Assembly: GCA_051941275.1 (NCBI GenBank)
Contig: JAVEBF010000006.1
Location: 46,593-66,592 of the forward strand
DNA length: 20,000 nt
DNA from: Dirinaria sp. TL-2023a
Taxonomy: Eukaryota
Direction of reading: 5' to 3'
The notes under the pieces: generated by a model
Databases searched by the model: none
What the model saw: the letters and a program-made list of their open reading frames with translations, nothing else
What the model was told of the DNA's origin: nothing
Shown: positions 1 to 19,034 of the stretch, piece after piece
Numbering within the stretch: position 1 is the stretch's first letter
How the letters are laid out: each line of letters begins with the position of its first letter
Translations under genes and position numbers: made by a program

Positions 1-430
1 ACCTGGTAGTAAACGTTGGTTTCCGTGGCCGCATTGTTGGTGGTACCAAATCCCCAGACACGTGCAGTTTTGAAGCCACTCTAATCACAGTTAATTCATG
101 CTCAACGAACAGTTTCAGAAACTTGATACTGACCGCAGCGATTTGGGACATGGCTTGGTCGACATCAGCGTTGCTGGTTAGATGACCAAGATACCAAGCA
201 TTTGTCCCTACATAAGTGTCAACAACGGTTTGCTTTCCAAGAGCGCGTTTAAACGAACCAGAAAAGTACTCCACTTTCCCTGCAATGTTGAAGAGCCTGC
301 CACTAGTGGAAGGGTACGTGGTACCCCGGGCTTCAATGGAGACGGCAGCTTTGTCATGAGTAGGGGCAGGTGCACTCCTGACGAGGCTGAGGCCGGCGCA
401 CAACAGCGAAAGGACTACTTGGAGATACAT
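1..430 (-). CDS. Secreted glycoside hydrolase family 5 endo-beta-1,4-mannanase (GH5_7-like), 5' part; gene continues beyond the left edge
   Basis: Not in the ORF track; reconstructed by hand. Exons 430-259, 207-134, 80-<1, with GT..AG introns 258-208 (51 nt) and 133-81 (53 nt). Translation: MYLQVVLSLLCAGLSLVRSAPAPTHDKAAVSIEARGTTYPSTSGRLFNIAGKVEYFSGTNAWYLGHLTSNADVDQAMSQIAASGFKTARVWGFGTTNNAATETNVYYQ. It has a signal peptide and the fungal GH5 mannanase N-terminal motifs F-x-I-x-G..YFxGTNxxx..NADVD..G-x-K-x-x-RVWGF..VYYQ. Confidence 0.88.
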   Translation of the reverse strand, partial: MYLQVVLSLLCAGLSLVRSAPAPTHDKAAVSIEARGTTYPSTSGRLFNIAGKVEYFSGSFKRALGKQTVVDTYVGTNAWYLGHLTSNADVDQAMSQIAAVSIKFLKLFVEHELTVIRVASKLHVSGDLVPPTMRPRKPTFTTR

Positions 431-2542
431 ATTGGTGAGAGCTCAGAACGTAGTGAAAAGGTCCTGTTGCAAGTTGAGAGCGAGACATGGCTTCTTATAC
501 CTGTCCAGTGTGAATAATGCTCTCTCTAAGGCTTGCGAGATGGACAATTTGCATGTTCCTGGTCCGAAATGGCCATCACCTAGATCCTTGCTATCGCAGT
601 GATCATACCTTAGGCTCAAGACCTACAGCGGTGCCTTAGCTTTCGATAGTGTTAAAGAAGTAGCCACGGAAACTAATTTAGTGTCTTGTGCAAGGGGCTC
701 AACATTGTGGAATTGCGGGGGACCTGATTCTCGCCACTTTGCTCATTGGTGAAAATGGCCTGTTCCAGTGACATGGATACGTTATGTATGCATGAGGTAC
801 TGTGGTCCAGATACGGTAGGTGGCACCTTAGTTCCCGCCTAAAAGCAATTGGTTGGAGTTAGATATACTAAAGCGTCCCTAGCATCTCTCGTGTTCAGTG
901 ACTCCGGCTCATCAAATGCTTGTTGCTAAGACACCCGGCTTTGCTGGAGAACCAAATACCACTAGCAAGCGTTCGAGAACATTCTTAGCAGCACGCAGAT
1001 CTCACGTCCATACATCTACCAAGCGTGTGTCTAGATAGATTACCGAACGTAGTCCGCCTTCCTCATATACAGGGTTTCCAGCGTGCTGTTCCTCACATAA
1101 TAGCGTAGCACTTGCGGTACATTTTGACATATGACAGCAGGCACTAATGAAGCAAGCTTTTGCACCATTGATGCTTGAGGTTGGGAACTGTATTGAGGGA
1201 TAGGAAAATGGGAGTCGGGGTCAGGCTTTTCAATTGGGTCTGGACTCCACAAGGCCTAAGTTGCAGCTTTTGGGTCGTACACTTTCAAAAGAATCGACTA
1301 ATTTTTGCCGCATGATATGTAGCAATTTGACTGCAGTATATGTGCTTCTCGACCAAGCCTCTTGTCCAAGGACACGGGATCGTTGCATTGTCGTCACCTA
1401 TAGGGCTTTGTTTTTCAGAACAGCCAGAATAAGCGGTGAGGGCAGTGTTGCAACATACTATCTTGGCACAAAGAAATACTATTGACGATACGAAAGTAGC
1501 GGTTACTCATTACTCAGGTATCGTATGATCAGGCCACACCTCCAGCTGAATCAATAAATTGAACCAGATATTGAATTTCAAATTTTTCTCATCTGCTCGC
1601 TTCTGAATGAACTTTTTTTTGACAGAGTCAAAGCGTTGACATATGCACATTTTAGGCTTTCCTCACGTAATGGGCTTGTATTAGCTCTTTCGCATGCGAG
1701 TCTGGTCATCAGCGAAGGCATATCTGCGGCTGAAGTCGATCGATTGCTGTTTGATCCAATGGTTGCTTGCTGGGCCTGTCTACCGAGCTGCTTTCGGGAC
1801 ACCTTCGTCTACCGTGGCTTGAGCTTCAACCAAGTCAGCAAAATCCGCATTTCCTTTCCACTTTCGTTCTAGGAAGAAAGATGGTCCACCATCCCAATGC
1901 TGTTTTCAGTCTTGTACGCTGCAGCGTAAAAGATAGCGACAAGAAGGCAGTCCACAGTTCACACGAGCTGATTGATATTGCCGCTGATGTAATCCGGAGC
2001 TTTTGGAAGCCTGGACTTCGAGAGCTGCCTCCCCTGAGCTAAAAATGACTTTCAAACTGATCTTGCTACTCTCCTTCAGACAGTTCAGATGGGAAAAACG
2101 TGGAATAGAAGGAGGAACGACGTCTGTCACTTCGGTATGTCAACAGAAGACTTCTGAATTTTTCTAGCCTCAAGAAACATGATGAAGACGTTGCAGAATG
2201 ACTAGAGTAAGCGTAAAGAATAATAACGAGAAGGATCAAAGATATACCTATGTAGGGTCAAATGGAAGAATGAGGCGGAAATGCAGCCAAGTCGAGTCAG
2301 CCGGTGAAAAGAGCAACCGACAACCGAAGTTTTGCCGGAGATTTCGCTGGTGGCTTCTTTTTAACCAAGTAGACAGTCACGATGATATACTATCAGCGAG
2401 AGGTTTTTCCCCTTTACCAAACTAGTAATCCTCTACCAGAGATCTGAAATTACGTCCAGACTGCGGACGTCTGCGACACTGAGTATGATGAAATGTGATC
2501 AACGCTACTACTCCACTACAACTGTTACGCCCACTGTCTAGC

Positions 2543-4274
2543 ATGGCGTCTGGCTATCATCGGCTTTCAATCAATGATGAGTCTTTCCCTGAAAGTCCCT
2601 TCATACCGAATAGCTCGATCAAAAGCCTCAGCCCCAAGAGTACAAGGAGTGGCAAGTCCAGCCATGGCGACTCTTCCCATGCGGCCTCGGTCCGTCGAAA
2701 ACACAGACTCATCTCTATCGCTGCCGGCACCGTCATGTGTCTTTTCGGGTACGAGCAAGGCGTCTTCGGCGGGATCATCGTAGGCCACGAATTCCAACAG
2801 TACTTTCATGACCCATCTCCGTCCATGATCGGCCTGGTGACCAGCGTGTATGATCTCGGTTGCTTTGCAGGAGCGATACTTGCCTTGTTTGTTGGAGAAT
2901 GGCTCGGTCGAAAACGCATGCTGATCGTCTTTACAATCATCATGACATCGGGCATCCTGGTGCAGACGGCTGCACACTCCGTGACTCATCTCATCTGGGG
3001 TCGGATCATTGCTGGGATTGGGAATGGAGGGAATACCAGTACCGCTCCTGTGTGGCACGTCGAGACGAGCGTGCAAAATGCAAAGGGCAAGGCGGTGGTC
3101 AAGGAGATGGTCGTCAATGTGGTGGGGTTTATTCTTGCTAATATCTTTACGCTGCTATTCAGCGGATTGAATACCGAGGCGCAATGGAGGTTCCCGTTAG
3201 GTATCCAGCTTATTTTCATCGTAATTATCCTAACAATGGTCCCTTTGCTTCCAGAGAGCCCAAGATGGCTACTCTCGAGAGGAAGAGATGCCGAAGCAAA
3301 AGACATCCTTGCGTCTTTGAACGAGCAAGACAGCGAAGAGGAATTTCTCGCTATACGGCAGTCCGTCAGGATTGAGCAGGCTACAGAGGCTTCATGGGCT
3401 CAGATTTTCAAGGGTGGTCAAGCCAGCCGAAGATTGCTGCTGGGAATGTTACTTCAAGTATGGTGCGTTTGGACTCCACCGTTTTCGAGACAATTGTCTA
3501 TTGAACTGGATCCACTCACCATATCTTAGCCAACAACTGACCGGTATTAATGTTCTTTGTTACTTTCTTCCACTCGTCCTTCATAAGTCAGTCGGTCTGT
3601 CCGAATTCGCCTCTCGTGTTCTGGCCACGGCGACTGCCCTCTTTTACCTGTCAGCAGCCGCCGTCTCCCTTCGGGTTATTGAAGCTTTTCGCCGCCGCAC
3701 CCTGCTTATGTCCATGGCCGCGATGCAGGCTCTTGCTTTTCTCGGTGTCGCCATCAGCACGGAGGTGGGTCACGACCTTACTTCGGGCATCATCGCTACC
3801 GTGTGTATTTCGGGGTATTTTATTGCCTTCGGCTTCGCCTGGATCGCCATTCCGTGGCTATACCCAGCAGAGATCAACTCGCTGAGTATGCGAACGAAGG
3901 GCGCTGCATTGGCAACAGCATGCGACTGGCTTTTCAATTATGCGGTCGTGCAGACAACGCCGATAGGGATGCATCACTTGCATTGGGGGATTTACCTGAT
4001 CTATGCAACACTGAATGCAGCATTTGTGCCAGTCGTGTATTATCTGGTGGTGGAAACCTCGGGACGCAGTCTGGAGCAGATTGATAGATGGTTTGAGCTT
4101 AATCCAGGGTGGTTGGTGCATAAGGCGGACCATTCCCCTGTATTTGAGAAAATGACTGTACGCGGTCAGAGCTCAGAATCAGAATCTGCCGTCGAAGAGA
4201 GTGAAGGAATGGTGCAGGAGTTTGAGAGGGAGAACGAGAGGAGCGGTGCCACGAGGCATCGAATGAGCTTCTAA
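2543..4274 (+). CDS. MFS sugar porter (Sugar_tr), STL1-like sugar/polyol:H+ symporter, ~554 aa
   Basis: Exons 2543-3462 and 3530-4274 join ORFs 2495..3529 and 3372..4274 via a 67-nt GTGCGT..CTCAC..TAG intron (3463-3529), giving LLQVCQQLTGIN. Sugar-porter motifs: GYEQG, GEWLGRKR, GRIIAGIGNG, WRFPLGIQ, LPESPRWL, QQLTGIN, PWLYPAEINSLSMRTKG, VETSGRSLEQID. Confidence 0.93.
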
Positions 4275-5591: not shown

Positions 5592-8142
5592 CTTGAAAAA
5601 TTCTTTATGTTAGATTATTTGAGAGGGTGGCAAATCTGAATATGCAATTTGTAAATGTCCCAAGCCGTCGGGTCCTCTACATGAGGCATTGGCCTGAGCG
5701 CTGCATTTCGTCATGCCGCTTAATCGGTTGTCGCGAATTCTAAGCATCGCTCACGGCCACTGAAAGAGCTGCTTGACAAATTGTTACTGGAAAGCCTGTA
5801 ATAAGGTCAAAGCAAACATCGAAGCTAGCTTGTGAGAGGCGTCGGTTATGAGGCAGAGTTTGCCTAAAAATAGAAAAGTGGCGCCTCTTCTACCATCTTG
5901 AAAGTTGCGATAGACGGGTCTCCGCTGGCGAGAGAGTGACTTGTGGGTGTTCACTTGTCGTCCCAGCGCATCCGTGTCAGGAACTCGAAAGGAAAAGTAA
6001 ACCTTTCGAAGCAGGATATGAAAGTTTTGAGTACTATTAGTCCAGCGCGAGGAATTTACTGGACATTCCAGAGCTTCAGTAGTACTCAATGCCATTTTGC
6101 ATCATTCCTTTTTATTTTCTCCAGACTCATCGAAGCCAATGAGAGACCTCTCAACGAACTGCCGGAAATCGAAAAACACACTACAAAGAAAGGGCTCTTG
6201 GCATCTAGTTACTGGCGATGATATAATAAGAGAAGTTCACAAGATAGGAGAAGGCAGATGCCAGAGGCAATGGTGTCCTTATACCAGCGTATGCGTCGCT
6301 TCCTCAAAACGAAACGAACCCGGGTTTAGATCTTCGTTCACAGGTTTACTAGCCTCGATAATCGATGTCTTTTGAGAATAGCCACTCCTCGTGGAGCCAG
6401 TCAACTGAGAGTGTGCTTTCTTCAATTTATTCTAGTCTGGGTTGTTGCGCAAGATGGACTGGCTTACTAAAATGCTTACTAGCTCTGCAGTTCGTGGATC
6501 GGCGCGTGCATCTGATGTTGAAGGACTGACTTGGCAACGAGTGTAGGCATTAGCGTGGGAGGAAGATCAAATTGATGGGGTTTTCAAGGTCTTATGTATC
6601 AGAGTCAGCGTGACATTTCGGAAGTAAGGCGGTGGTAACTTACACGGCTAGCTTTCCTAATGTTGAAGATACTACAGTAGGTAATGCGTCAACGCTATAG
6701 TAATCACAAATGCCGCTTTCGCTTCGCAAGGTGTGAGACCTATAGGTGAGAAATATGCAAGCGTTGAACCACATGAACAATATTCATGCGCTAACAGTGG
6801 CTTAGTGTTGATTCTGACTGAGCTAAACATGCAAAGAAATACAGCACACTGCAAAGACATGGCATAGTCGTTGGTGATAACATAGCATGATATGTGAGAA
6901 AAATGGTGACCGGATAAATGATCAAGAAATGACGGTTCTGTCAAAGAAAAGCTCGAAATTTCTAACGTCTTCTGAGGTACTTCTGCAAGCCGCTTCTATG
7001 AAGCTTCTAGCTGCTCTTGAGGTACCCCAGATTATTGAAATGCTATTGGGCAATCCCATGATGCTGTCGCTTTTGATGCAGCCGCTTCAGTCGTCACTTG
7101 GCAGAGCATTTCGCATCCTTTCTCGAACACATCAAGACTAGGAGAATTTACAATGAACAGATCTCTTACTTTCCTATTTGCATCAAACCATAAGTCATGT
7201 GTCGCCTTTTCTCGATTAGCGGGGAGAAAGACATCCTGGATGTGCACGTCTCCGACGCGCCGGTTCCGGACACATGGTCAGGGGATACTAGCAGGAGTCG
7301 ATGCGCGCATACCAGCAAAAAGGGAATCTCATTAGCTAGGGAAGTTTGCGATGTAAGTCTTCGATTAAGCGGAGCCGGATCAGTTGTATCTTGTGGCGTT
7401 GAGTTCCATGTCGCTCCATGGCCATGAAAGCCGTCGGGTGAACGTAGACTTTCCCGGTTTCCGGTGTCGCTTATCGCGTTTGCATCGGTATGACCGTCTT
7501 GCGAAGGTGGAATGATCGGTATTTTATGTTATCTGCATTAGTACATCCACCTCTCCAGTTATAGTAAGTTTACTTCGGTGCCTCCATGTACTGGTACTTG
7601 ATCGTGCTTTTGCCCATCTCATACTTCCTAGTGCTGGCACCACATTTTCGCGTCTGCCACATAAGTTCTTCAATTTTCTCCAACTCCGTCGTCTCAAATG
7701 TCTAGTCAAAGCTGGCATGGCATGGCTCTGTAGAATCGAGTCCAGATGTTCAAGGGTGCGAGCCGAAGCCGTGAACCACGCGACTTTTGCATGTATTTGT
7801 GGGGCGATCTATGATGCTCTTGACAAATTTGACATCTTATGTGAAGCGCACAATACAGCTTGCAAGCACCTCACGGCATCCAACCGATCCTCGTTCCATC
7901 CCCACATCGCTACTCTCCTGCCGAGGCTTCGCGCGGGTTGATATATTCAGAATGCGATAAGCGGCTCACACAGGTGATGCTTCTCGACCAACGTCCTCAA
8001 CGATCAGTAGCTCTCACCCATCAAGTAAATCATTGCCGAGATCGCGTCTTGATAAGCCCCTCAGCTATGTAAGAAAGCAGTCTTGTACCTCATCTTGGCC
8101 GATTCTTTTCCTCTCGCGGTCGCCGTAGTTCCTTTGCCAGTG

Positions 8143-9067
8143 ATGGATGTATTGTGCCCTTCTCTTGCTTCTCATTTGGTCTGGCTGACCCTGATCACTC
8201 TTCTATGTCTCGGTGTAAATGTTCGCATCACTACACCAGTGGTCTCGGCTTCTCCTCTTGAAACCGTGGCGACCAATATCTCTGCAGTCCAGACACCAGT
8301 GTGCGATAAAACGCTTGGAGGACTGCCAGCTACGCGACCCGATCCGGACGACTGCGAAACAGCCATAGCACGCATTACTCGCGATCCACGTGGACGACCA
8401 GTCAATCGTAATTTCTTTATTAGAGACAGCGATAGGTCGTCAACGATGCCCAACGTTCATATGCCATTCTCTAAGACTTTTGGTGAGTTGCTAGAACAGG
8501 AGACCAGAGTGGATTGCAAACTGGCACCGAAGGCCTGACGATGCAGGTCAGGCACATGCACGGTACAAGCCGTCATCGCAGCCGAATTTTGGGATATACC
8601 GCACGAAACCGCTTCTTGGATCGATATGTGGGGTCCGGCACGCGACATTCTCCATCGCTGTGTGCAATCTTCGGAGACTGGGGGCCTAGTAACACGAATG
8701 GGTAGCATTTACGGCTATTAAGTTTGTCAGAGAAGGCTGATCATGAATACTAGGTCAGAACCAGAAGATTGATGTGATTGTTTATGATGAGCGGTCCATA
8801 TACGGTCTGAATAGGGTGATCAAAGAATCCAAGGACCCTGTGGCCCAGAGTATTGCCATCTCTGAGCTTCTGGATTTGCTGCAGCTGCAGAATCACCCCA
8901 TCCCAGATATATCAGTGCTGATTCATCCTGGCGCCGATAGCACAAATGGGACGAGAGTTGATACTCAAGCAATTACAGCGCGGCAAGTGGCGGATCGAAG
9001 ACAGAAGAGGCCGTCAACGAGGAACGTCCTTGCTGATTTGGGAAAAACGAAGACTCAATACCTGTAG
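8143..9067 (+). CDS. Secreted cysteine-containing effector-like protein (KP4/Ecp2-like Cys spacing), ~267 aa
   Basis: Exons 8143-8482, 8552-8701, 8754-9067; introns 8483-8551 (GTGAGT..CTGAC..CAG) and 8702-8753 (GTAGCA..CTGAT..TAG). A hydrophobic N-terminus (HLVWLTLITLLCLGV) precedes PVCDK..PDPDDCETAIARI..MPFSKTFGTCTVQ..ASWIDMWGPARDILHRCVQSSETGG..IDVIVY. The family assignment comes from remembered motif patterns, not a search. Confidence 0.78.
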
Positions 9068-10169: not shown

Positions 10170-11840
10170 ATGGCTCTTCCAAACGGGAGTCGGACCTCGA
10201 ACAACATCAATAATAGCGGTGCTGACGGCGAAACTAGCCCTCTGCTGCGTGGCGAGACCCAATCTGCGTCCGTGCACGACAGTGAAGCAACCTACATACC
10301 ATCTCCTGATCATGGCAAGGCCGCCTGGCTGTTCTTAGCAGGTTGTTTCGTGATCGAGGGACTCGTATGGGGTAAGCGCTCCATATGCAGTCTTCCATTC
10401 TACCTTAAACTTGAGCCTCACTGCATGTTTCGAATACCTTGGCCAACTCAGCTTTGCTGTAGGGCTTCCATTCTCCTATGGCGTCTTCGAAAAATATTAT
10501 CCCGAACACCAGCCATGCTCCAAACACCCAGAGGGAGTAGCAGCCGTCGGAACAACCACCACGGTAGGTTTAAAATCTCAATAGAAGGAAGAATGCTAAT
10601 CGATTTCTAGGGAGTTCTGTACTTTCTATCTCCAGCTGCTGTTCTGGCTTTACAACGCTGGCCTTCCCATCGCGTTCTGATGACGGCATTAGGCCTAGGA
10701 ATGGTTGTCTTGTCTCTCGTCGCGGCATCCTTTGCCACCAGTGTCACCGACCTACTATTCACGCAAGGCGCCATGTACGGCATCGGAGGTGCCTTTCTCT
10801 ACAACCCTTTCGTCTTCTACCTCGATGAGTGGTTCATAGAGCGGAAAGGATTGGCATTCGGTATACTATGGGCTGGTACGGGAATCAGCGGCACCTTGGT
10901 GCCCCTCATCATGGAATGGGGCTTGGAGAATTATGGGTTCAGGATAATGCTGCGCTTCTGGGCAGTTGTCATGGTTCGCTAGCAACCTACTGCGCAGACA
11001 CGGCAAAGCGACGCCTTGGCTGACTCGGTACCAGTTCGCAGGTATAGCACCCTTGATGTACGTGACAAGGCCCCGGTTGCCTACGCCAAAAGAAGGAACA
11101 ACTCGACCCTTGTACCTTGGCTTCTTCCGAAACCCTACCTTTTGGATATTCCAGGCCGGCAACGTCTTGGAAGGCTTCGGGTACTTCATGCCTTCTATCT
11201 ACCTGCCGTGTAAGCAGTTTTCCCAGGCGTATTCAGACCGGCGCTGGACTAATTGAACTGATCAGCTTACGGTTCATCCCTGGGCTTCCCGCCGCTCCCC
11301 TGCACACTGGCAGTATCGATCCTCAACTGCGCTTCCGTGATCGGGACGATCCTCATCGGCTCCTTGACAGACTTCCTACACATTACGACCGTAATACTCA
11401 TCTCAGCGCTTGGCTCTGCACTGTCGGCTTTCGTGCTTTGGGGTTTGGCCACTTCGAAACCCGTACTGTACCTGTTCGCTCTTGTCTACGGCGTTTTTGC
11501 CGGTGGATACGCTGCGACCTGGGCTGGATGTCTGGGCGAGGTGCAGAGAGATTCGCGAGACGCAGAGGCAGGCGTGGTGCTTGGAATGATGGCGGCGACG
11601 AGAGGGATCGGGGCCGTGGTCAGCGGCCCCTTGAGCGAAGTGCTGTTCAAGTTTAGGCTGGGAGATGCATCATTGGCAGGTGCGTACGGCACCGAGTATG
11701 GAGTGGTCATTCTCTTCACAGGGATCACGGCGGTCCTTGGAGGTCTGGGCGCGATCGAACGGGTGCGGATCTGGGGCATGGACGATGGAGAAGTGGAGAG
11801 CATTCGACAAATTCGATGGACGCACGAGGACATGCGATAG
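10170..11840 (+). CDS. MFS transporter, monocarboxylate porter (MCH/MCT-like) family, ~471 aa
   Basis: Five exons: 10170-10371, 10463-10563, 10611-10973, 11035-11209, 11266-11840. All four introns are GT..AG and frame-consistent. Family motifs: PDHGKAAWLFL, GLPFSYGVFEKYY, TQGAMYGIGG, DEWFIERKGLAFGILWAGTGISG, GFGYFMPSIYLPSY, GVFAGGYAATW, RGIGAVVSGPLS. Confidence 0.92.
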
Positions 11841-12000
11841 ACCAGTTATCCTATTCCATAATTTCTATCATAGGCAGCGACGTTGAATCCAGTCGCGCAT
11901 GCAAATGTAAATGGCAATTCACTTTTGGTAACAGAAATCCAACTCATGAACCATTCCCCGGCAAGCTGCAAGGGGAAAGGGCCTCAACATTGATGTGTGT

Positions 12001-13442
12001 TCAATTCGGTAGGTCCTTGGTGGTCGAGAGCAGATGTATTCCTGGAACGGAGTCAGTCAAAACAGTGACGGCATCGATGCGTTGGGCCCGGCTTACCATA
12101 GGTTCCGTCCTCATTACTCCAACAGTCTGTTTCACTCAGACCCGCATCCGCCCAGAGCTGCTCTTGCTGTTTAGTGTTGTACTTGAAGCTATGGACGATC
12201 GGTATAGCCTTCCAACTTTTGAGCAGCCGATTCCCAAAAACAACATCGTCCATCGGAACGAGATACTGATCATGAACCCCCAACGCTGGGTTCCACTCTC
12301 CACGGACTACCCAGTGTTCAGGGTCGAAGGCCTCGTAGCCCAGGAGATGATTGGCATGGCCCAGCGCATTGAGGACGAAGCGTGAGTTGCGTCCCGCAGG
12401 GTCACAGTACGCCCGGCGAACCCGTTCGGGGGACATGCAGGCGTCGACGCCGACGAGGATGGACGATACTCCTCCATGCTGGGGGTCGGTGGACGAAGCT
12501 TTACAAGTCAAGGAATTCGCGAAGCCTGCTAGGAATTGGGCGGCTTCGGGGCGAGTGAAGCTGCCGATGGTCGAGCCCATGGATAGGATGCATTTGGGCC
12601 GGTGGACGTTCTCGGGGCGTTGCAGCCATTGGCGACCGTCGTCGTAGGTGCCTAGCAAACCGCGACAGCGCACATGCTTGAATGCGCCGGAGGGGATCTG
12701 CTTCAGGCTGCGCTCCAGCTCGGACTCGGATAAGTCCAGCGCATAGTAGTCGACCTCTGTACCGAGGCTGTCCAGCGCTTTGAGGAGGATTGTGATTTTT
12801 CGGAGGTTTCTGTCATTAGGAATAGTAGTGCTCAGTGTCAGTTAGGTAAGGTAGGTGTGTGCCAGTGTGGGGGGGATCTTGCACTAGCCTAGCCTCGCCT
12901 GGAACCTGCCCCGAACAACCGCCCCCCGGTCACCCGTTGCTAGCTCAGCCGGGGCGGCTACTTGGACTAGGATAGGTATGGAATGTAGGTACGAGTACAT
13001 GGTATGTAGGTGATATTATGATACTACATCAAGGAAACAGCTTCCATCCTGGAAATTCTTACCCGCTTCCCAACTCCACCATCATCGTATTCGGCGCAAT
13101 CTTCTTCGCCATCTCCTTGCCATACTTTTCCAGCACATGGATCTCCGACTGGGTCAGGTAGTACTCGTCGCTGTAGGTGATCGCTTCAAACAGCTTCAAG
13201 CCGTTGGCGTCCCACAGCAGGAGGGAAGGGAAGGTTGGTGGAGAGTCGCCGGAGGGACCTCCTGCCAGACTTGTGCGGAGGGTTTCCAGCAACGAAAGCT
13301 GTTGCTTGTCGGCCCGGATGTCGATGATAGCGCGAGAAAAGTCGTGATCATAGTCATTCTTATCATCATCAGGGCCGCGGCCATCTTGCTTCGCGTTTCC
13401 TTTGAACATCGTGGGGATCTCCGGATCTAGTAGAGGAGACAT
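12001..13442 (-). CDS. Stand-alone SAM-dependent N-methyltransferase of the EgtD/Egt1/EasF (Methyltransf_33) family, ~377 aa
   Basis: Exons 13442-13063, 12809-12097, 12041-12001; introns 13062-12810 (253 nt) and 12096-12042 (55 nt). Motifs closely follow the Egt1 methyltransferase domain: IIDIR, PSLLLWDANGLKLFEAITYSDEYYLT, MVELGSGNLRKITILL, VDYYALDLSESELERSL, GLLGTYDDG, GSTIGSF, LVGVDAC, SFKY, YGIHLL. The stop (TGA at 12003-12001) follows directly, so there is no sulfoxide-synthase domain. Confidence 0.93.
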
Positions 13443-13957
13443 CCTTATGATGTGATGGCTTGAATTGAGTTCGGTATTTTCAAGTACTTGTACTCAATTG
13501 CTGCAGGATTTTTATGTTGTATTTTTTTTTTCAGTGTTTATATACCTTACATTAGTGATGAAGCGCCTCAACGTGTGCGATGGTGATGTCATGCTTAACA
13601 TCACACCACGTCCAACTACTTTACCTTACCTACCTTACTTATTGTTCTACACACATTAGTTTCTTCATTGTTGAACCCTAATTCAACTCCTGCAGCTGCC
13701 ATTGTAGTACTGCGACTTATCATAAAGCGACCATACCCTGATCGCTCGTCTGTTTCTTGTCGCGAAATCAGTCAGTTGGTCGTTCATTTTTCTTTTCCTC
13801 TTTCTTCGCAATCTGATTTGCTTTTCATCTCATTCTCGATGTCAGAGAAAGGTTCGATATGCATATAATCGCCTAGGAGCTGGAAGGAAAAGATATTAAG
13901 CCGGCCAACTCACGCAAACAATAGCACGTACCATTGGAACCCCGTTCAGGTCTTACC
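13443..13957. promoter_or_regulatory. Probable bidirectional promoter between the methyltransferase and the FAD monooxygenase
   Basis: 515-bp head-to-head intergenic spacer. It is AT-rich, with a T-run near 13523-13531, a TATA-like TTTATATA near 13537-13544 and pyrimidine-rich tracts around 13785-13835. No specific transcription factor site was identified. Confidence 0.55.
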
Positions 13958-15987
13958 ATGGCGCCCGCCCGAAACCCAGCAGTCTCACACGTGGACCTGA
14001 TCATCATTGGAGCTGGTCCCGCGGGTTTGATGGCTGCCGCTTGGGCCAGTTCCTATGGCATCTCGACCCGCATCCTTGACAAGAATGCCTCGAGGGTCAA
14101 GACTGGACATGCTGATGGCTTACAATCTCGGACACTGGAGATCTTTGATAGCTTCGGCTTCGCAGATCGCCCGCTGAAAGAAGGCTTCCACGTCCTAGAG
14201 ATCTGCTCTTGGGTTAGGCGTCTGCATGCCTCCCAGTGACTGTTGAGTGGGACTAGCTGACCCACCTGTAGAACCCAGATAAGAATGGAAGGCTCCAGAG
14301 AACACAGCGAGCCGTGGCCCAACGACCAGGTGTGAGCAGGTTCCAGCAAGTCGCGTTCAACCAGGGCGGTATTGAAGAGATCATCACCGAATTCCTCGGA
14401 CGCAACGGTGATCTTAAAGTTGAGAGGAATGTAGAACCCACTAGCTTACACTTGGACCGTGCTGTCATTGATAACCCAGACGCATGGCCTATTACTTTGA
14501 CCATTCATCATGGCATCCCCGATCAAGCCGGAGCAGTTTCTACGCATCGGCTCGTTGATGGCCGCCCTGCACAAAGACATCTCAAAACCCACAGTCAGAC
14601 CTCACCAGGTCTTTCTCCTACAGAAGGTGAAAATGAAATCATCAAAGCAAAATATCTCATTGGCTGCGATGGTGCCCACAGCTGGACGCGGAATGAGATA
14701 GGGCTCTCACTGGTCGGCGAATCCACAGACCAGGTATGGGGTGTCATAGACATCATCCCGCTTACAGACTTTCGTGGGTCTTGTACCGCTGCTGACTGGA
14801 TCCAATGCTGACATCTGCCAGCGGATGTTCGACTGTCTTGTGCAATCCACTCTGCTTCATGCGGTACCATTATGACCGTGCCCCGTGAACGCCGACTAGT
14901 TCGTTTCTACATCCAGCTCATGGAAGTCAGTGAAGGGCGCACGTTTGATCGTTCAAGTGTCAGCTTGAAATCGATATTCGAGACTGCTCAGAAAATCATA
15001 GCACCATATAAGCTAGAGTACAGTTACTGCGACTGGTGGTCCATTTACCAGATTGGTCAACGCGTTGCTCCCAAGTTCGATGTTGGCCGCAGAATCTTTC
15101 TCGCCGGGGACGCTGTCCATAATCACTCTCCAAAAGCCGGTCAGGGCATGAATGTCTCGATGCAGGATACCTACAACCTCTGCTGGAAGGTTTCCTCCGT
15201 CCTCAAAGGCTATGCCAAAGCCGACATACTCGAAACGTATCACTCCGAGCGTCACCAAGTAGCGGAACAGCTGATCGAGATTGATCATGAAATATCTCGC
15301 TTTTACTCTGTGAATTCTGCCGGCCGAAGCGACTATCAGGCGTTTCGAAACAGATTTGCCAACTTCTTGAGCGGAGTCGCTGTAGCTTATGGAGAGAGCA
15401 TACTCGTAAAACCATCAGATCACGAGGTAGTAGATACTAAGAGCTCATCTCCGGTAGCAGTCAAAGTTCAGCTTGGAGCCCGGCTGCCTTCCTACCAAGT
15501 GCTAAATCAGTCCAATGCGAAGCCGACGCAGATTGCGGATATGCTTCGTAGCGATGGTAGATGGCGCATCCTCGTTCTTGCAGGCGACTTGCACGACCAA
15601 GTGCACCGTTCTCGAGTCAACGAGCTGGGAGATGCCTTCCGTCAACTTTTGATACGCTATACCGGTCTTGAGACGCGAATAGACGCAGTCATTGAACTTT
15701 TGACCATTCACTCGGCTCCTCGAGTGGATGTCGAATTATTGGACTTGCACGAGATATATCATCCGTGGGACGAATCTGCAGGTTGGGACTACGAAAAGGT
15801 GTACACGGATGATCTGTCTCACCATGAAGGGTTCGAGAACGCTTACGAGAAATATGGGATCCACCGGACACACGGCGGCGTAATCGTGTGCAGGCCCGAT
15901 CAGCACGTCGGCTGCATAACCTGTTTGGATGAGGCTCCCGGGGTCCTGGAGGATTATTTTGATAGGATCTTGATAAAGCAGAGATAA
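13958..15987 (+). CDS. FAD-dependent aromatic hydroxylase, phenol 2-monooxygenase family (FAD_binding_3 plus C-terminal thioredoxin-like dimerisation domain), ~640 aa
   Basis: Exons 13958-14212, 14272-14773, 14822-15987; introns 14213-14271 and 14774-14821. Motifs: IIGAGPAGL, GHADGLQSRTLEIF, YLIGCDGAHSWTR, WGVIDIIPLTDFPDVR, PRERRLVRFYIQL, YQIGQRVA, RIFLAGDAVHNHSPKAGQGMNVSMQD, SDGRWRILVLAGD, RPDQHVG. Confidence 0.95.
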
Positions 15988-16985
15988 AGCCCCTGGGACT
16001 TCGACCGAGGCGTGGATATCTGTTGCCCATTCGTCAGGCACACTGATTCGCCTTTTGCTTTCCATGCATGTGAGGCAGGGGCTTCCGCTGCGATAGGAAG
16101 CTTGACACTGCTCCAGAGCGCGGGCCTTTGTGCATTGGATATGCAACTGTGCTTCTTCATCGCGCTAGCTCTATACTATATGTGACGTTTTGGCAAGAAG
16201 GCGCCAATGATTTGCTCGAAGATTGAATTATCTCACAGACAAAATCTGGACTTTTGCAGGGTAACCTCTAGGCATGCAATTGCTTATACAACTGGTGCTT
16301 ATGCGCGCTTGACAGCGCGAGCCGATGTCTGCAATTCCCGTCCAATTTCGCCTTTCTCACTTGCATACCTCACTATAACGAATACCAACAACACCGTTAC
16401 ATCAAGCCCACAGAGGAGCGCTCAAGCAGTTGCCCAGCCGGGAGTGCGGAGCAAGCTTTCTGACTGCGCCGTGGGCCGGCTGTTCATTGCTTATCTGTTT
16501 TAGCAAACAGCCGACGCTTATGTTTCGGAGGTTATTGATAATGAGACGGTTATGATTCGCCAACGCTCTACATCCTCTAGGGCGGAAGAGGAAGGTACCC
16601 GAGCGGAGGGTGGTATTCCCAACTTTCCCCCTCCCCAGATCTTCACGAAAATGCACTATCGCCACAGGAGTGACAGGACCTGCTTCGAAGAGGGCATCCC
16701 TTGCATGCACCATCAATTAGCAATGTCGCTCACCATGGTACTTTCACCTGATTTGCACAGACTTGGCGACTGCTCCGATTGCCGAGGCCAGCTTATTCGG
16801 CATGAAGCTCTGTTTGCACGCAAGCCACCGAAGGAGGGAACGGCAGCAGGTCCTCATGACCTTCATGATACAAATATCGAGCATGTCCTGCATTCACTAG
16901 TCCTTGTTCGACTGTACCTCGCCCTACTGGCAGAATTGCGTTCGGTGTACGAGTACTGCCCTCACAGACTGGACTTTTCCACATC

Positions 16986-19034
16986 ATGGCCAAGCCTGCC
17001 GTACTCGCCATCGGCGGAGGTGACCCTCGCTTGAGTGTCGACGAGGGCAAAAATGGCATCTCATCGATGGCCTACACATTACCACAAATGCGCAAGCTTC
17101 ACGATGCGAGCGTGACGTTCGAGGAGTACAATTACTACGCCAGGAAGACGCGGGCAGAGGAAGACTCGGACGCTGCGGAGGAGAGATCAGCTGGTGGCAC
17201 GACGGGCATTCTCGGCGTCATCTTCCCGTCCAAGTCTGACAAGGGCGTCGAGCGTGTGGGCGAGAAGCGGGGCTCCGTGATTGCTGCAACGGTCAATCTG
17301 TCGAACCCCGACAAACGAGCCCAGATCAGCGACGAAGAATGGACCAACGCCAATAGGGCTCTGCGGACAGCGACTTGGGGCGCCATCTTCTATCTGATTA
17401 CAACAGACATTTTAGGGCCTTTTGGCCTTCCCTATGCCTTCGCATCTATGGGATGGGGGTGAGAGGATCCCATGGCAATCTGATGTTACATAGGGCAATG
17501 TTTCGCTGACATATCTTACATAGGCCTGGTGTAGCCCTCTTCACTGTCTTCGCAGCCCTGGCAGGTTATTCGGGATATCTTTTGTGGATGTGCTTCATGG
17601 GATTGGACTCGTATGAATTTCCCGTCAAGAGCTTTGGCGACGTAGGCTTCCGCCTTTATGGCTGGCCCATCCGGATCCTTTTCAACCTCCTACAAGCCAT
17701 CCAATTGGTGCTCAACGTCGGCTTGATCGTCATCTCGAACGGCGAGGCGCTGTCGCAGGCTGCCAAATTCAAGCTCTGCTTTGCCGTCTGCTGTCTGGTT
17801 TGGACGATTGCGGGGTTCTTGTTCGGACAGGTCCGCACCCTCCAGAAGTTCGGATGGCTGGCAAATGCCGCTGTGTGGCTCAACATCATCGTTATCGGCA
17901 TTACAATGGGAGCTTCGGCAACGACAGCGCCCAATTACCAGGCGGCCGATCTGGCCGCTGGCGCAGGCTTGAACAATGGTACTTCGGTCACTCCAGACCC
18001 TACCACTGGCGTCTTTCCCCCCGTCATGCATACCGCCGGTCTTCCCGACACGGGCAGCTTTATCGGCAGCTTGAATGGAGCTATGCAGGCGGTGTTCTCC
18101 TACGGAGGATCTATGATTTTCCCAGAACTCATGTCCGAGATGAAGCGACCACGGGATTTCCTTAAGGTTCGAATCTCCCTCTCCCCCTCTCATCTCAATA
18201 TATTTGTCAGCTCAGCTAACGTTCTGATCAAAAACAGGGGATGTGGTTCGCGCAACTCTTCATCTATTTCATCTACATGTTCTACGGTCTCTTCATGTAC
18301 GGTTACCAGGGCCAATACGTCGTCAACCCCAGCTACCTCGGCATATCGAAATACAATCTTCAAACGGCAGGGAATGTGTTCGCGATGGTAAGCGCGCTCA
18401 TTGCCGCCGCCCTGTACGGCAACATTGGCGTCAAAGGTACGGTTTAGCTCTCTCTCTCTCTCTCTCGCTTCAACCCGTCCCCCATCCCCTCTCTCTCCCT
18501 GGCCGACCAAAAACCGCCCAACTTACCAAAACCAACCAAACAGTGATCTACAACAACATCTTCGTCGAGCTCTTCCGCGCCCCGCCCCTGACCACCAAAC
18601 CGGGGAAAATGGCCTGGGTAGCCATGATCCCGATCTACTGGTCCATCGCCTTCGTGATCGCGGCGGGCATCCCCGATTTCACGGGCCTCACCTCCCTCGT
18701 CGCCTCCATCTGCATCCTGCAATTCACATACACCTTCCCGCCCCTCCTGGCCGTCGCGTACATGGTGAAGCGCAACGCGATGCGCGCGGACGAAGGGTTC
18801 GATCCCGCCACGGGCGAGACGCGGAGGGTGGATGGTGGCGTGAAGAGGTTTGTCAGGGGTTTCATGGGCGAGCGGTGGTATATGAATGTTTTTAATGTGC
18901 TGTATATGCTGGGTGCGATGGCCATGGCTGGGTTGGGCGCGTACGCGGCCATTGAGAATCTGATTGAGGCGTTTGATAACGGCGCCGCGAATAGTTTTGT
19001 TTGTCAGAGTCCATTGGAGGGGGCTACTGGCTAG
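16986..19034 (+). CDS. Amino acid transporter (Aa_trans/AAAP family, neutral amino acid permease-like), ~601 aa
   Basis: Exons 16986-17458, 17524-18166, 18238-18436, 18544-19034; introns 17459-17523, 18167-18237, 18437-18543, all GT..AG and frame-consistent. Motifs: RTATWGAIFYLITTDILGPFGLPYAFASMGWGPG, KSFGDVGFRLYG, GQVRTLQKFGWLAN, MQAVFSYGGSMIFPELMSEMKRPRDFLKG, YWSIAFVIAAGIP, QFTYTFPP, plus many transmembrane segments. Confidence 0.93.
18448..18466 (+). repeat. (CT)9 microsatellite in intron 3 of the amino acid transporter
   Basis: ctctctctctctctctctc read directly from the sequence. Confidence 0.9.

Follow-up and report, generated by a model that had tools for sequence, protein, structure and literature searches.

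What product, if any, do an EgtD-family methyltransferase (MT) and a phenol-hydroxylase-type monooxygenase (MO) make together when their genes stand head-to-head in a lichen fungus? We addressed this question in a stretch of 20,000 nucleotides from Dirinaria sp. TL-2023a (contig JAVEBF010000006.1, positions 46,593 to 66,592; hereafter the window), where the two genes lie between those of a monocarboxylate transporter (MCT)-like major facilitator superfamily (MFS) transporter and an amino-acid permease. A first-pass annotation of the same DNA had read all four genes as one cluster for a methylated and hydroxylated aromatic amino acid, in which the permease would import the substrate and the MFS would export the product. 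Comparison with related loci indicates that the head-to-head MT-MO pair, and not the four-gene block, is the real unit. With a probability of roughly one half, we propose that this pair forms a backbone-less two-gene pathway leading from tyrosine via tyrosine betaine to 3,4-dihydroxyphenylalanine (DOPA) betaine, a sticticin-like product.

The pairing was followed through metagenomes. An alignment of 21 stand-alone MT relatives was used to fetch 80 metagenomic loci, each with up to 10 kb on either side, which were searched with the window exons; the taxonomy of these contigs is inferred solely from the named proteins with which they cluster. Sorted by the pocket residues described below, 51 loci belong to the type of Egt1, the ergothioneine enzyme with a histidine-trimethylating domain, and 29 to the type found in the window. 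The C-terminal domain of Egt1 (sulfoxide synthase, PF03781) lies directly downstream in 40 of the 51 Egt1-type loci and in none of the 29 window-type loci. Fifteen window-type loci have an upstream flank of 2.5 kb or more, and 14 of them carry a divergent MO within 2.5 kb whose first exon faces the start of the MT; none of the 25 Egt1-type loci with flanks of that length does. Locus L008, which has 1977 bp upstream and falls outside the 15, shows the first MO exon at the contig end, and the remaining 13 window-type loci were too short to score. The first-pass annotation had named conserved linkage in other genomes as a test of its proposal, and for the two enzymes the linkage holds. Co-localisation beyond general synteny was found for the MT-MO pair and not for the four-gene block.

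After near-copies were merged (L001-3, L005/6, L009/10 and L011/12), the linked set consists of 10 metagenomic lineages, the window and a gene model of Talaromyces atroroseus, about 12 in all. MT identity among these lineages is mostly 45-57%, with closer pairs at 63-83%, and the flanks of the pair vary from one to the next: Med1, RPN7, mRNA cap methyltransferase, F-actin capping protein, SUMO-activating enzyme (E1), queuosine salvage, tRNase Z, PPR and HAUS6 genes. The Talaromyces model (P0122, 976 aa) carries PF10017, PF01494 and PF07976 in a single protein, and the MT of Aspergillus lentulus (P0081) is labelled 'phenol 2-monooxygenase' by its source. Three of the closest MT matches and three of the closest MO matches come from contigs of equal size (14551, 11359 and 99658). 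Among the best 120 named matches of each enzyme no species is shared, so locus tags are uninformative here. The same sister pairs recur in the MT and MO trees (L005/L016, L009/L055, L011/L013, L033/L042 and window/L001), which fits joint inheritance of the two genes.

The MT is a stand-alone protein that ends at position 12001 without a fused sulfoxide synthase. Its two large exons match PF10017 with 167.1 and 64.5 bits (cut-off 23; E 6.5e-49 and 1.1e-17), and its identity is 44-48% to Egt1 MT domains and 47-80% to stand-alone relatives. To place its pocket residues, EgtD positions were mapped through HMMER alignments to the M. tuberculosis and M. smegmatis enzymes. According to PMC8593015, EgtD binds the substrate carboxylate through Tyr56, Tyr206 and Ser284 and the alpha-amino group through Asn166, while Thr213 positions a water that reads the imidazole. 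All three carboxylate binders are kept in the MT as Y94, Y261 and S334. By comparison, the positions that read histidine in EgtD have changed (Asn166 to S210, Thr213 to N268, Glu282 to V332), as have two further pocket positions (Tyr39 to W77, Met252 to Q308). This gives a pocket signature of WSNQV, the Egt1 counterpart of which is YNTAE; fungal Egt1 rows retain Tyr, Asn, Thr and Glu at the Tyr39, Asn166, Thr213 and Glu282 columns. Because the carboxylate triad is kept and N166, T213 and E282 are replaced, the MT has the look of an N-alpha-methyltransferase for free amino acids in which the recognition of histidine is lost, in line with the role that the first-pass annotation had given it.

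Signatures were counted over 320 sequences (120 long proteins, 120 short hits and the 80 loci). The carboxylate triad reads YYS in 206 of the 320 rows and -YS in a further 69 that are N-terminally cut. YNTAE dominates the long proteins, with 110 cases against 4 of WSNQV, the latter including the Talaromyces two-enzyme model. The short hits comprise 42 full and 23 N-terminally cut cases of WSNQV and 6 full and 21 cut cases of YNTAE; in the loci, full signatures number 17 and 36, respectively. In a maximum-likelihood tree of 61 MT rows, the 20 rows of Egt1 type are separated from the remaining 41 at a support of 100. MO-linked MTs are dispersed throughout this 41-row clade, and the MT-MO association is therefore old. 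Both MT types can occur in one genome, for example in Kuettlingeria erythrocarpa and Baudoinia panamericana.

A well-supported sub-clade nested among the non-Egt1 MTs (P0014, P0021, P0038, P0043, P0045, P0048, P0064 and P0066, all short fragments) carries SWRS, SHRL, CWRS, GWRS, GHRL or SYRC at the N166/T213/M252/E282 positions. These pockets suggest a further substrate switch.

The MO matches PF07976 with 197.9 bits and also PF01494. Mutant studies by Xu, Ballou and Massey reportedly established Asp54, Arg281 and Tyr289 as catalytic in phenol hydroxylase, and every one of the 11 MT-linked MOs retains equivalents of the three; in the other 97 MO rows, Arg and Tyr are kept throughout and Asp in 78 (18 gaps, 1 Ile). 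A full-length protein 95% identical to the MO (P0241) aligns end to end with the phenol 2-monooxygenase of Trichosporon cutaneum (PDB 1PN0/1FOH; E 1.6e-138). The catalytic residues and this end-to-end homology argue for the phenol-hydroxylase-type enzyme that the first-pass annotation had called. In a FastTree phylogeny of 131 rows (97 generic, 11 MT-linked and 23 unlabelled), the 97 generic phenol hydroxylases form one clade (support 100, branch length 0.42), and all 11 MT-linked MOs fall outside it. Ten alignment columns separate the two groups. At P0241 position 258, Ser fills 12 of 12 occupied linked rows where 100% of generic rows have Arg, and at position 428 Arg occupies 15 of 15 linked rows where 84% of generic rows have Phe. 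Two more of these columns are positions 431 (Phe in linked, Gly in generic rows) and 413 (Phe and Leu, respectively). All four positions map to about 14822-15987 of the window. The invariant Arg of the linked MOs could serve as a substrate-carboxylate binder.

In the pathway that we propose, the MT and the histidine-trimethylating domain of Egt1 would be paralogues, and the MT, its side-chain pocket rebuilt, would still hold a free alpha-amino acid by the carboxylate. It would permethylate the alpha-amino group of L-tyrosine with S-adenosylmethionine (SAM), giving tyrosine betaine. The MO would next add a hydroxyl group to the phenol ring, ortho to the existing one, at the expense of NAD(P)H and O2, giving DOPA betaine, and the MCT-like MFS may move the betaine or a precursor. 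This order would follow a logic like that of ergothioneine, in which the betaine is made first and the ring functionalised next, with a hydroxylase in the place of the sulfoxide synthase. Tyrosine is the proposed substrate because the MT would act on a free aromatic amino acid and the MO needs a phenol, and no other proteinogenic amino acid offers both. We infer the substrate, step order, product and transporter roles from sequence. Cluster finders would miss such a pathway, since it has no core synthase.

DOPA betaine, the product predicted here, and sticticin are related as free acid and methyl ester. Sticticin is described in PMC6332210 as a 1,3,4-substituted aromatic that yields methyl caffeate with base, and as the chief aromatic constituent of extracts from Sticta and Lobaria. 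A carboxyl O-methyltransferase is not in the window. As the window holds no esterifying enzyme and sticticin has not been reported from this lichen, 'sticticin-like' is the limit of the evidence.

Several points weigh against the proposed pathway. Tyrosine is chosen mainly from the phenol requirement of the partner, and the pocket residues alone name no substrate; sticticin has been reported from the other lichen genera Sticta and Lobaria. One lineage (L039/L044) has the MT and no MO within 10 kb upstream, and the Met at the junction of the Talaromyces P0122 model suggests two tandem genes joined by the gene predictor and not a fusion. On the side of the MO, the score against the T. cutaneum phenol hydroxylase (264 bits) is about as high as that against the MO portion of the Talaromyces protein (259 bits, 37% identity), and identity to generic fungal phenol hydroxylases is 46-51%; a protein equally near to generic enzymes gives no evidence of a rebuilt substrate site. 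The MO tree was built with FastTree and has long branches, and 23 of its rows, standing beside the MT-linked MOs, carry no linkage label. Finally, the RNA described below consists of contigs of one sample from a relative, which allows no judgement on co-expression.

The same linkage would be expected if the two enzymes share one pathway with another chemistry, and neither step order nor substrate is fixed by the present data. The MO could act first, turning tyrosine into DOPA for the MT; the substrate could be another phenolic amino acid (m-tyrosine, hydroxytryptophan or 4-hydroxyphenylglycine); methylation could stop at the mono- or dimethyl stage; or the catechol could be an intermediate. 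That the pocket is evolvable is indicated by the SWRS, SHRL and GWRS pockets of the nested MT sub-clade, and loci L033/L042 have W instead of Q at the Met252 column. However, WSNQV is very uniform across the sequence classes (42 full and 23 cut among the 120 short hits, 17 of the 80 loci), which fits one common substrate, and tyrosine is the only proteinogenic phenol. We consider these variants, taken together, somewhat unlikely.

If instead all four genes formed a cluster, a dedicated Aa_trans importer and an MCT-like MFS exporter would serve both enzymes. All four genes are transcribed, and they recur in the same order in L001-L003, which represent one close relative and are the only loci to hold the full block (identities to the window: MT 66%, MO 63-64%, MFS 73-80%, permease 61-82%). 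These loci, however, also keep a Sugar_tr transporter from outside the block (75-79% amino-acid identity) and a small open reading frame (ORF); since non-block genes are conserved too, their synteny is general microsynteny and uninformative on function. In the other 8 lineages with flanks, no homologue of the MFS or the permease was found at E 1e-5. Their neighbours are housekeeping genes, and the MFS or Aa_trans genes that do lie a few kb away in L009, L011, L013 and L016 belong to other families or subfamilies.

The MFS stands apart from the permease. A homologue 63-65% identical to it stands tail-to-tail with a window-type MT in L039:10001-12847 and L044:1128-3671, where the MT is only 48% identical to that of the window and, in L039, carries G where the window MT has W in the Tyr39 column. 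As it recurs beside the MT in a second lineage, the MCT-like MFS may belong to the MT-MO unit. A search of the PDB with a single MFS exon of 123 aa placed monocarboxylate transporters 10 and 8 first, followed by 1 and 2 (E 3e-9 to 1e-5); 12 of the 14 matches listed are MCT10, 8, 1 or 2, with SecE and an L-lactate MFS transporter from a bacterium as the other two. These SLC16 members are its best solved relatives, at a likeness that is distant and comes from that one exon. MCT10 is the T-type aromatic amino-acid carrier, and both MCT10 and MCT8 carry aromatic amino acids and iodothyronines. The protein atlas confirmed the MFS and gave, for the permease, named clusters that were all Aa_trans, and the PDB search with a permease exon returned only chance-level matches (E at least 0.3). 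The permease recurs nowhere informative and is probably merely a neighbour. Thus, of the two transporters that the first-pass annotation had included, the MFS retains a place as a candidate and the membership of the permease is doubtful, and the four-gene cluster as a whole, which is kept just where the wider microsynteny is kept, appears unlikely.

Locus L039 and locus L002, the latter with the full block, belong to one series of metagenome records, so L039 may represent a second locus of paralogous genes.

If the two genes were merely adjacent, an ordinary catabolic phenol hydroxylase would share a bidirectional promoter region with a betaine-forming MT but not its pathway. The closeness of the MO to generic enzymes, the identity of its catalytic residues, the lack of a demonstrated change in its substrate site and the lineage that has an MT without an MO would all agree with this. 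Against it stands the persistence of the pair in about 12 lineages as all other neighbours change, together with its absence from the 25 Egt1 controls. Moreover, the linked MOs lie outside the 97-row generic clade, their sister pairs match those of the MTs, and 10 columns set them apart (S instead of R at P0241 258, R instead of F at 428). We hold mere adjacency to be improbable.

The first-pass annotation had also asked whether the MT might require a peptide made elsewhere. Here the MT would methylate the N-terminus of a ribosomal peptide, as UstM/PhomM-like enzymes do, or a non-amino-acid amine, and the MO would decorate a peptide tyrosine. Methylation of an N-terminal tyrosine does occur in dikaritins, according to PMC11285071, whereas work on GigC deals with methylation of lysine and is uninformative on the family. 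The MT nevertheless keeps all three alpha-carboxylate binders of EgtD, and no DUF3328 Pfam match was found in 10 loci (213 ORFs of at least 120 aa) or in 19 ORFs of the window, a scan to which a repeat precursor is invisible; a peptide substrate is highly improbable. The same low likelihood attaches to a second hercynine (histidine betaine) synthase, a reading suggested by the 44-48% identity to Egt1 MT domains and by relatives labelled 'histidine-specific methyltransferase' and opposed by the replacement of Asn166, Thr213 and Glu282 (full YNTAE is found in 110 of the 120 long Egt1-type proteins and 36 of the 80 loci), by the separate clades (support 100) and by the two genomes, of Kuettlingeria erythrocarpa and Baudoinia panamericana, that hold both types.

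At the level of the DNA, the description given by the first-pass annotation was reproduced. Gene models were solved by requiring GT..AG introns and open frames, and they yield four consecutive intact genes over 10170-19034, separated by 160, 515 and 998 bp, with MFS and MT tail-to-tail and MT and MO head-to-head (Table 1). The window is fungal DNA with introns, its longest stop-to-stop ORF measuring 391 aa, and 9 of the 10 ORF pieces scanned have a Pfam match; the families of the four genes are, in order, MFS_1, Methyltransf_33, FAD_binding_3 with Phe_hydrox_dim, and Aa_trans. In agreement with the claim that core synthases are missing, the families of polyketide synthases, non-ribosomal peptide synthetases and dimethylallyltryptophan synthases had no Pfam match in the 19 window ORFs scanned, some short ORFs lying outside that scan.

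Table 1. Gene models and associated features of the four-gene interval, in window coordinates.
Feature	Position	Strand	Description
MCT-like MFS transporter	10170-11840	+	5 exons, ~471 aa; MFS_1; 4 RNA joints
EgtD-family methyltransferase (MT)	13442-12001	-	3 exons, 377 aa; PF10017
MT exons	13442-13063, 12809-12097, 12041-12001	-	model identical letter for letter to P0001 (annotated hypothetical protein)
Divergent MT/MO intergenic region	13443-13957		515 bp; presumed bidirectional promoter
Phenol 2-monooxygenase homologue (MO)	13958-15987	+	640 aa; PF01494 + PF07976
MO exons	13958-14212, 14272-14773, 14822-15987	+	both introns are GT..AG joints in RNA contigs
Aa_trans (AAAP) amino-acid permease	16986-19034	+	4 exons, 601 aa; PF01490

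All four genes are transcribed. The RNA evidence is a set of contigs from a single lichen metatranscriptome sample, sequenced in 4 runs; the contig records are 88-99% alike to the window, so their source is a close relative and not the same strain. Spliced contigs span all four genes with 9 listed joints, 8 of which have GT..AG ends. Besides those of the MFS and the MO, they comprise one in the MT (12041-12095) and two in the permease. A tenth intron (permease, 18435-18541) was deduced from adjacent contig pieces, and MT intron 1 (12810-13062) is absent from the listed joints. Contig depth is about 44 for the permease and about 4-9 for the other three genes, a measure that cannot rank expression.

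One RNA contig (run X1, record 2, 1520 letters) covers 11266-12788 and connects the last exon of the MFS, through the 160-bp spacer, with the MT, whose last intron is spliced out. The 3' ends of the convergent MFS and MT genes abut or overlap; a contig across two genes proves no single transcript. When the 515-bp region between MT and MO was aligned with L002/L003, no convincing conserved motif emerged. A CT-rich low-complexity run lies at 18438-18475 within permease intron 3 and was treated as a repeat in read mapping; Tandem Repeats Finder reported nothing at this run.

Elsewhere in the window, the Sugar_tr transporter gene occupies 2492-4274 (+) with at least 1 intron, and its homologue in L001-L003 is inverted relative to the four-gene block. 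An ORF at 8056-8538 (+) without a Pfam match lies in the 5.8-kb gap between the sugar transporter and the MFS; it has a homologue at the matching place in L001-L003 (54-56% over 63 aa) and may be a small real gene. A 147-aa open frame at 2-442 (-) leaves the window at its left end. With a signal-peptide-like start and no Pfam match at E 1e-5, it is probably the start of a gene for a secreted protein. Scans of the window for tRNAs and tandem repeats returned nothing.

Compared with known systems, the MT has PF10017, the region of the SAM motif and the carboxylate binders Tyr56/Tyr206/Ser284 in common with EgtD and the N-terminal domain of Egt1. It differs from them in standing alone, in having W/S/N/Q/V at Tyr39/Asn166/Thr213/Met252/Glu282, in forming its own clade and in its flavin-hydroxylase partner. 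The MO resembles the T. cutaneum phenol 2-monooxygenase over its full length, in its FAD_binding_3 and Phe_hydrox_dim domains and in Asp54/Arg281/Tyr289, and differs from it and from generic phenol hydroxylases in its position outside the 97-row clade and in the 10 clade-specific columns.

Fungal aromatic betaine synthases are already known. Vit et al. are said to have turned EgtD into a tryptophan enzyme in 2015 through changes of Glu282 and Met252, and to have reported that EgtD homologues trimethylating tyrosine and tryptophan are common in fungi. Their tyrosine betaine and hypaphorine synthases, together with EasF and TrpM, are fungal homologues of EgtD that stand alone and act on aromatic amino acids; the window MT stands alone too and probably belongs to this fungal betaine-synthase family. 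We know of no hydroxylase partner reported for these synthases. The frequency of fungal EgtD homologues is also stated in a one-sentence summary of Vit et al. 2015. A conserved pairing of Methyltransf_33 with a phenol hydroxylase was not found in the literature searched, although subscription papers and supplements may hold it. With both enzyme families already known, what appears to be new is the MT-MO pairing, its breadth and the predictive pocket signature.

Extending the proposal beyond this locus, we tentatively raise the possibility of a widespread and overlooked fungal pathway, in which a duplicate of the ergothioneine methyltransferase and a flavin phenol hydroxylase would make DOPA betaine as a catechol counterpart of ergothioneine. 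As its nitrogen is quaternary, DOPA betaine would not cyclise towards melanin, and it might protect lichens, black yeasts, rock fungi and aspergilli as a stable zwitterion that is redox-active and binds metals; an additional esterifying methyltransferase would turn the same pathway into a route to sticticin. Relatives of the pair are named from tractable fungi (Aureobasidium, Aspergillus and Talaromyces). If the proposal is true, a WSNQV pocket signature next to a divergent phenol hydroxylase would provide a rule for finding such pathways in genomes, and genes would be assigned to aromatic amino-acid betaines, the lichen alkaloid sticticin included. It would also reveal a second product line descended from the ergothioneine methyltransferase.

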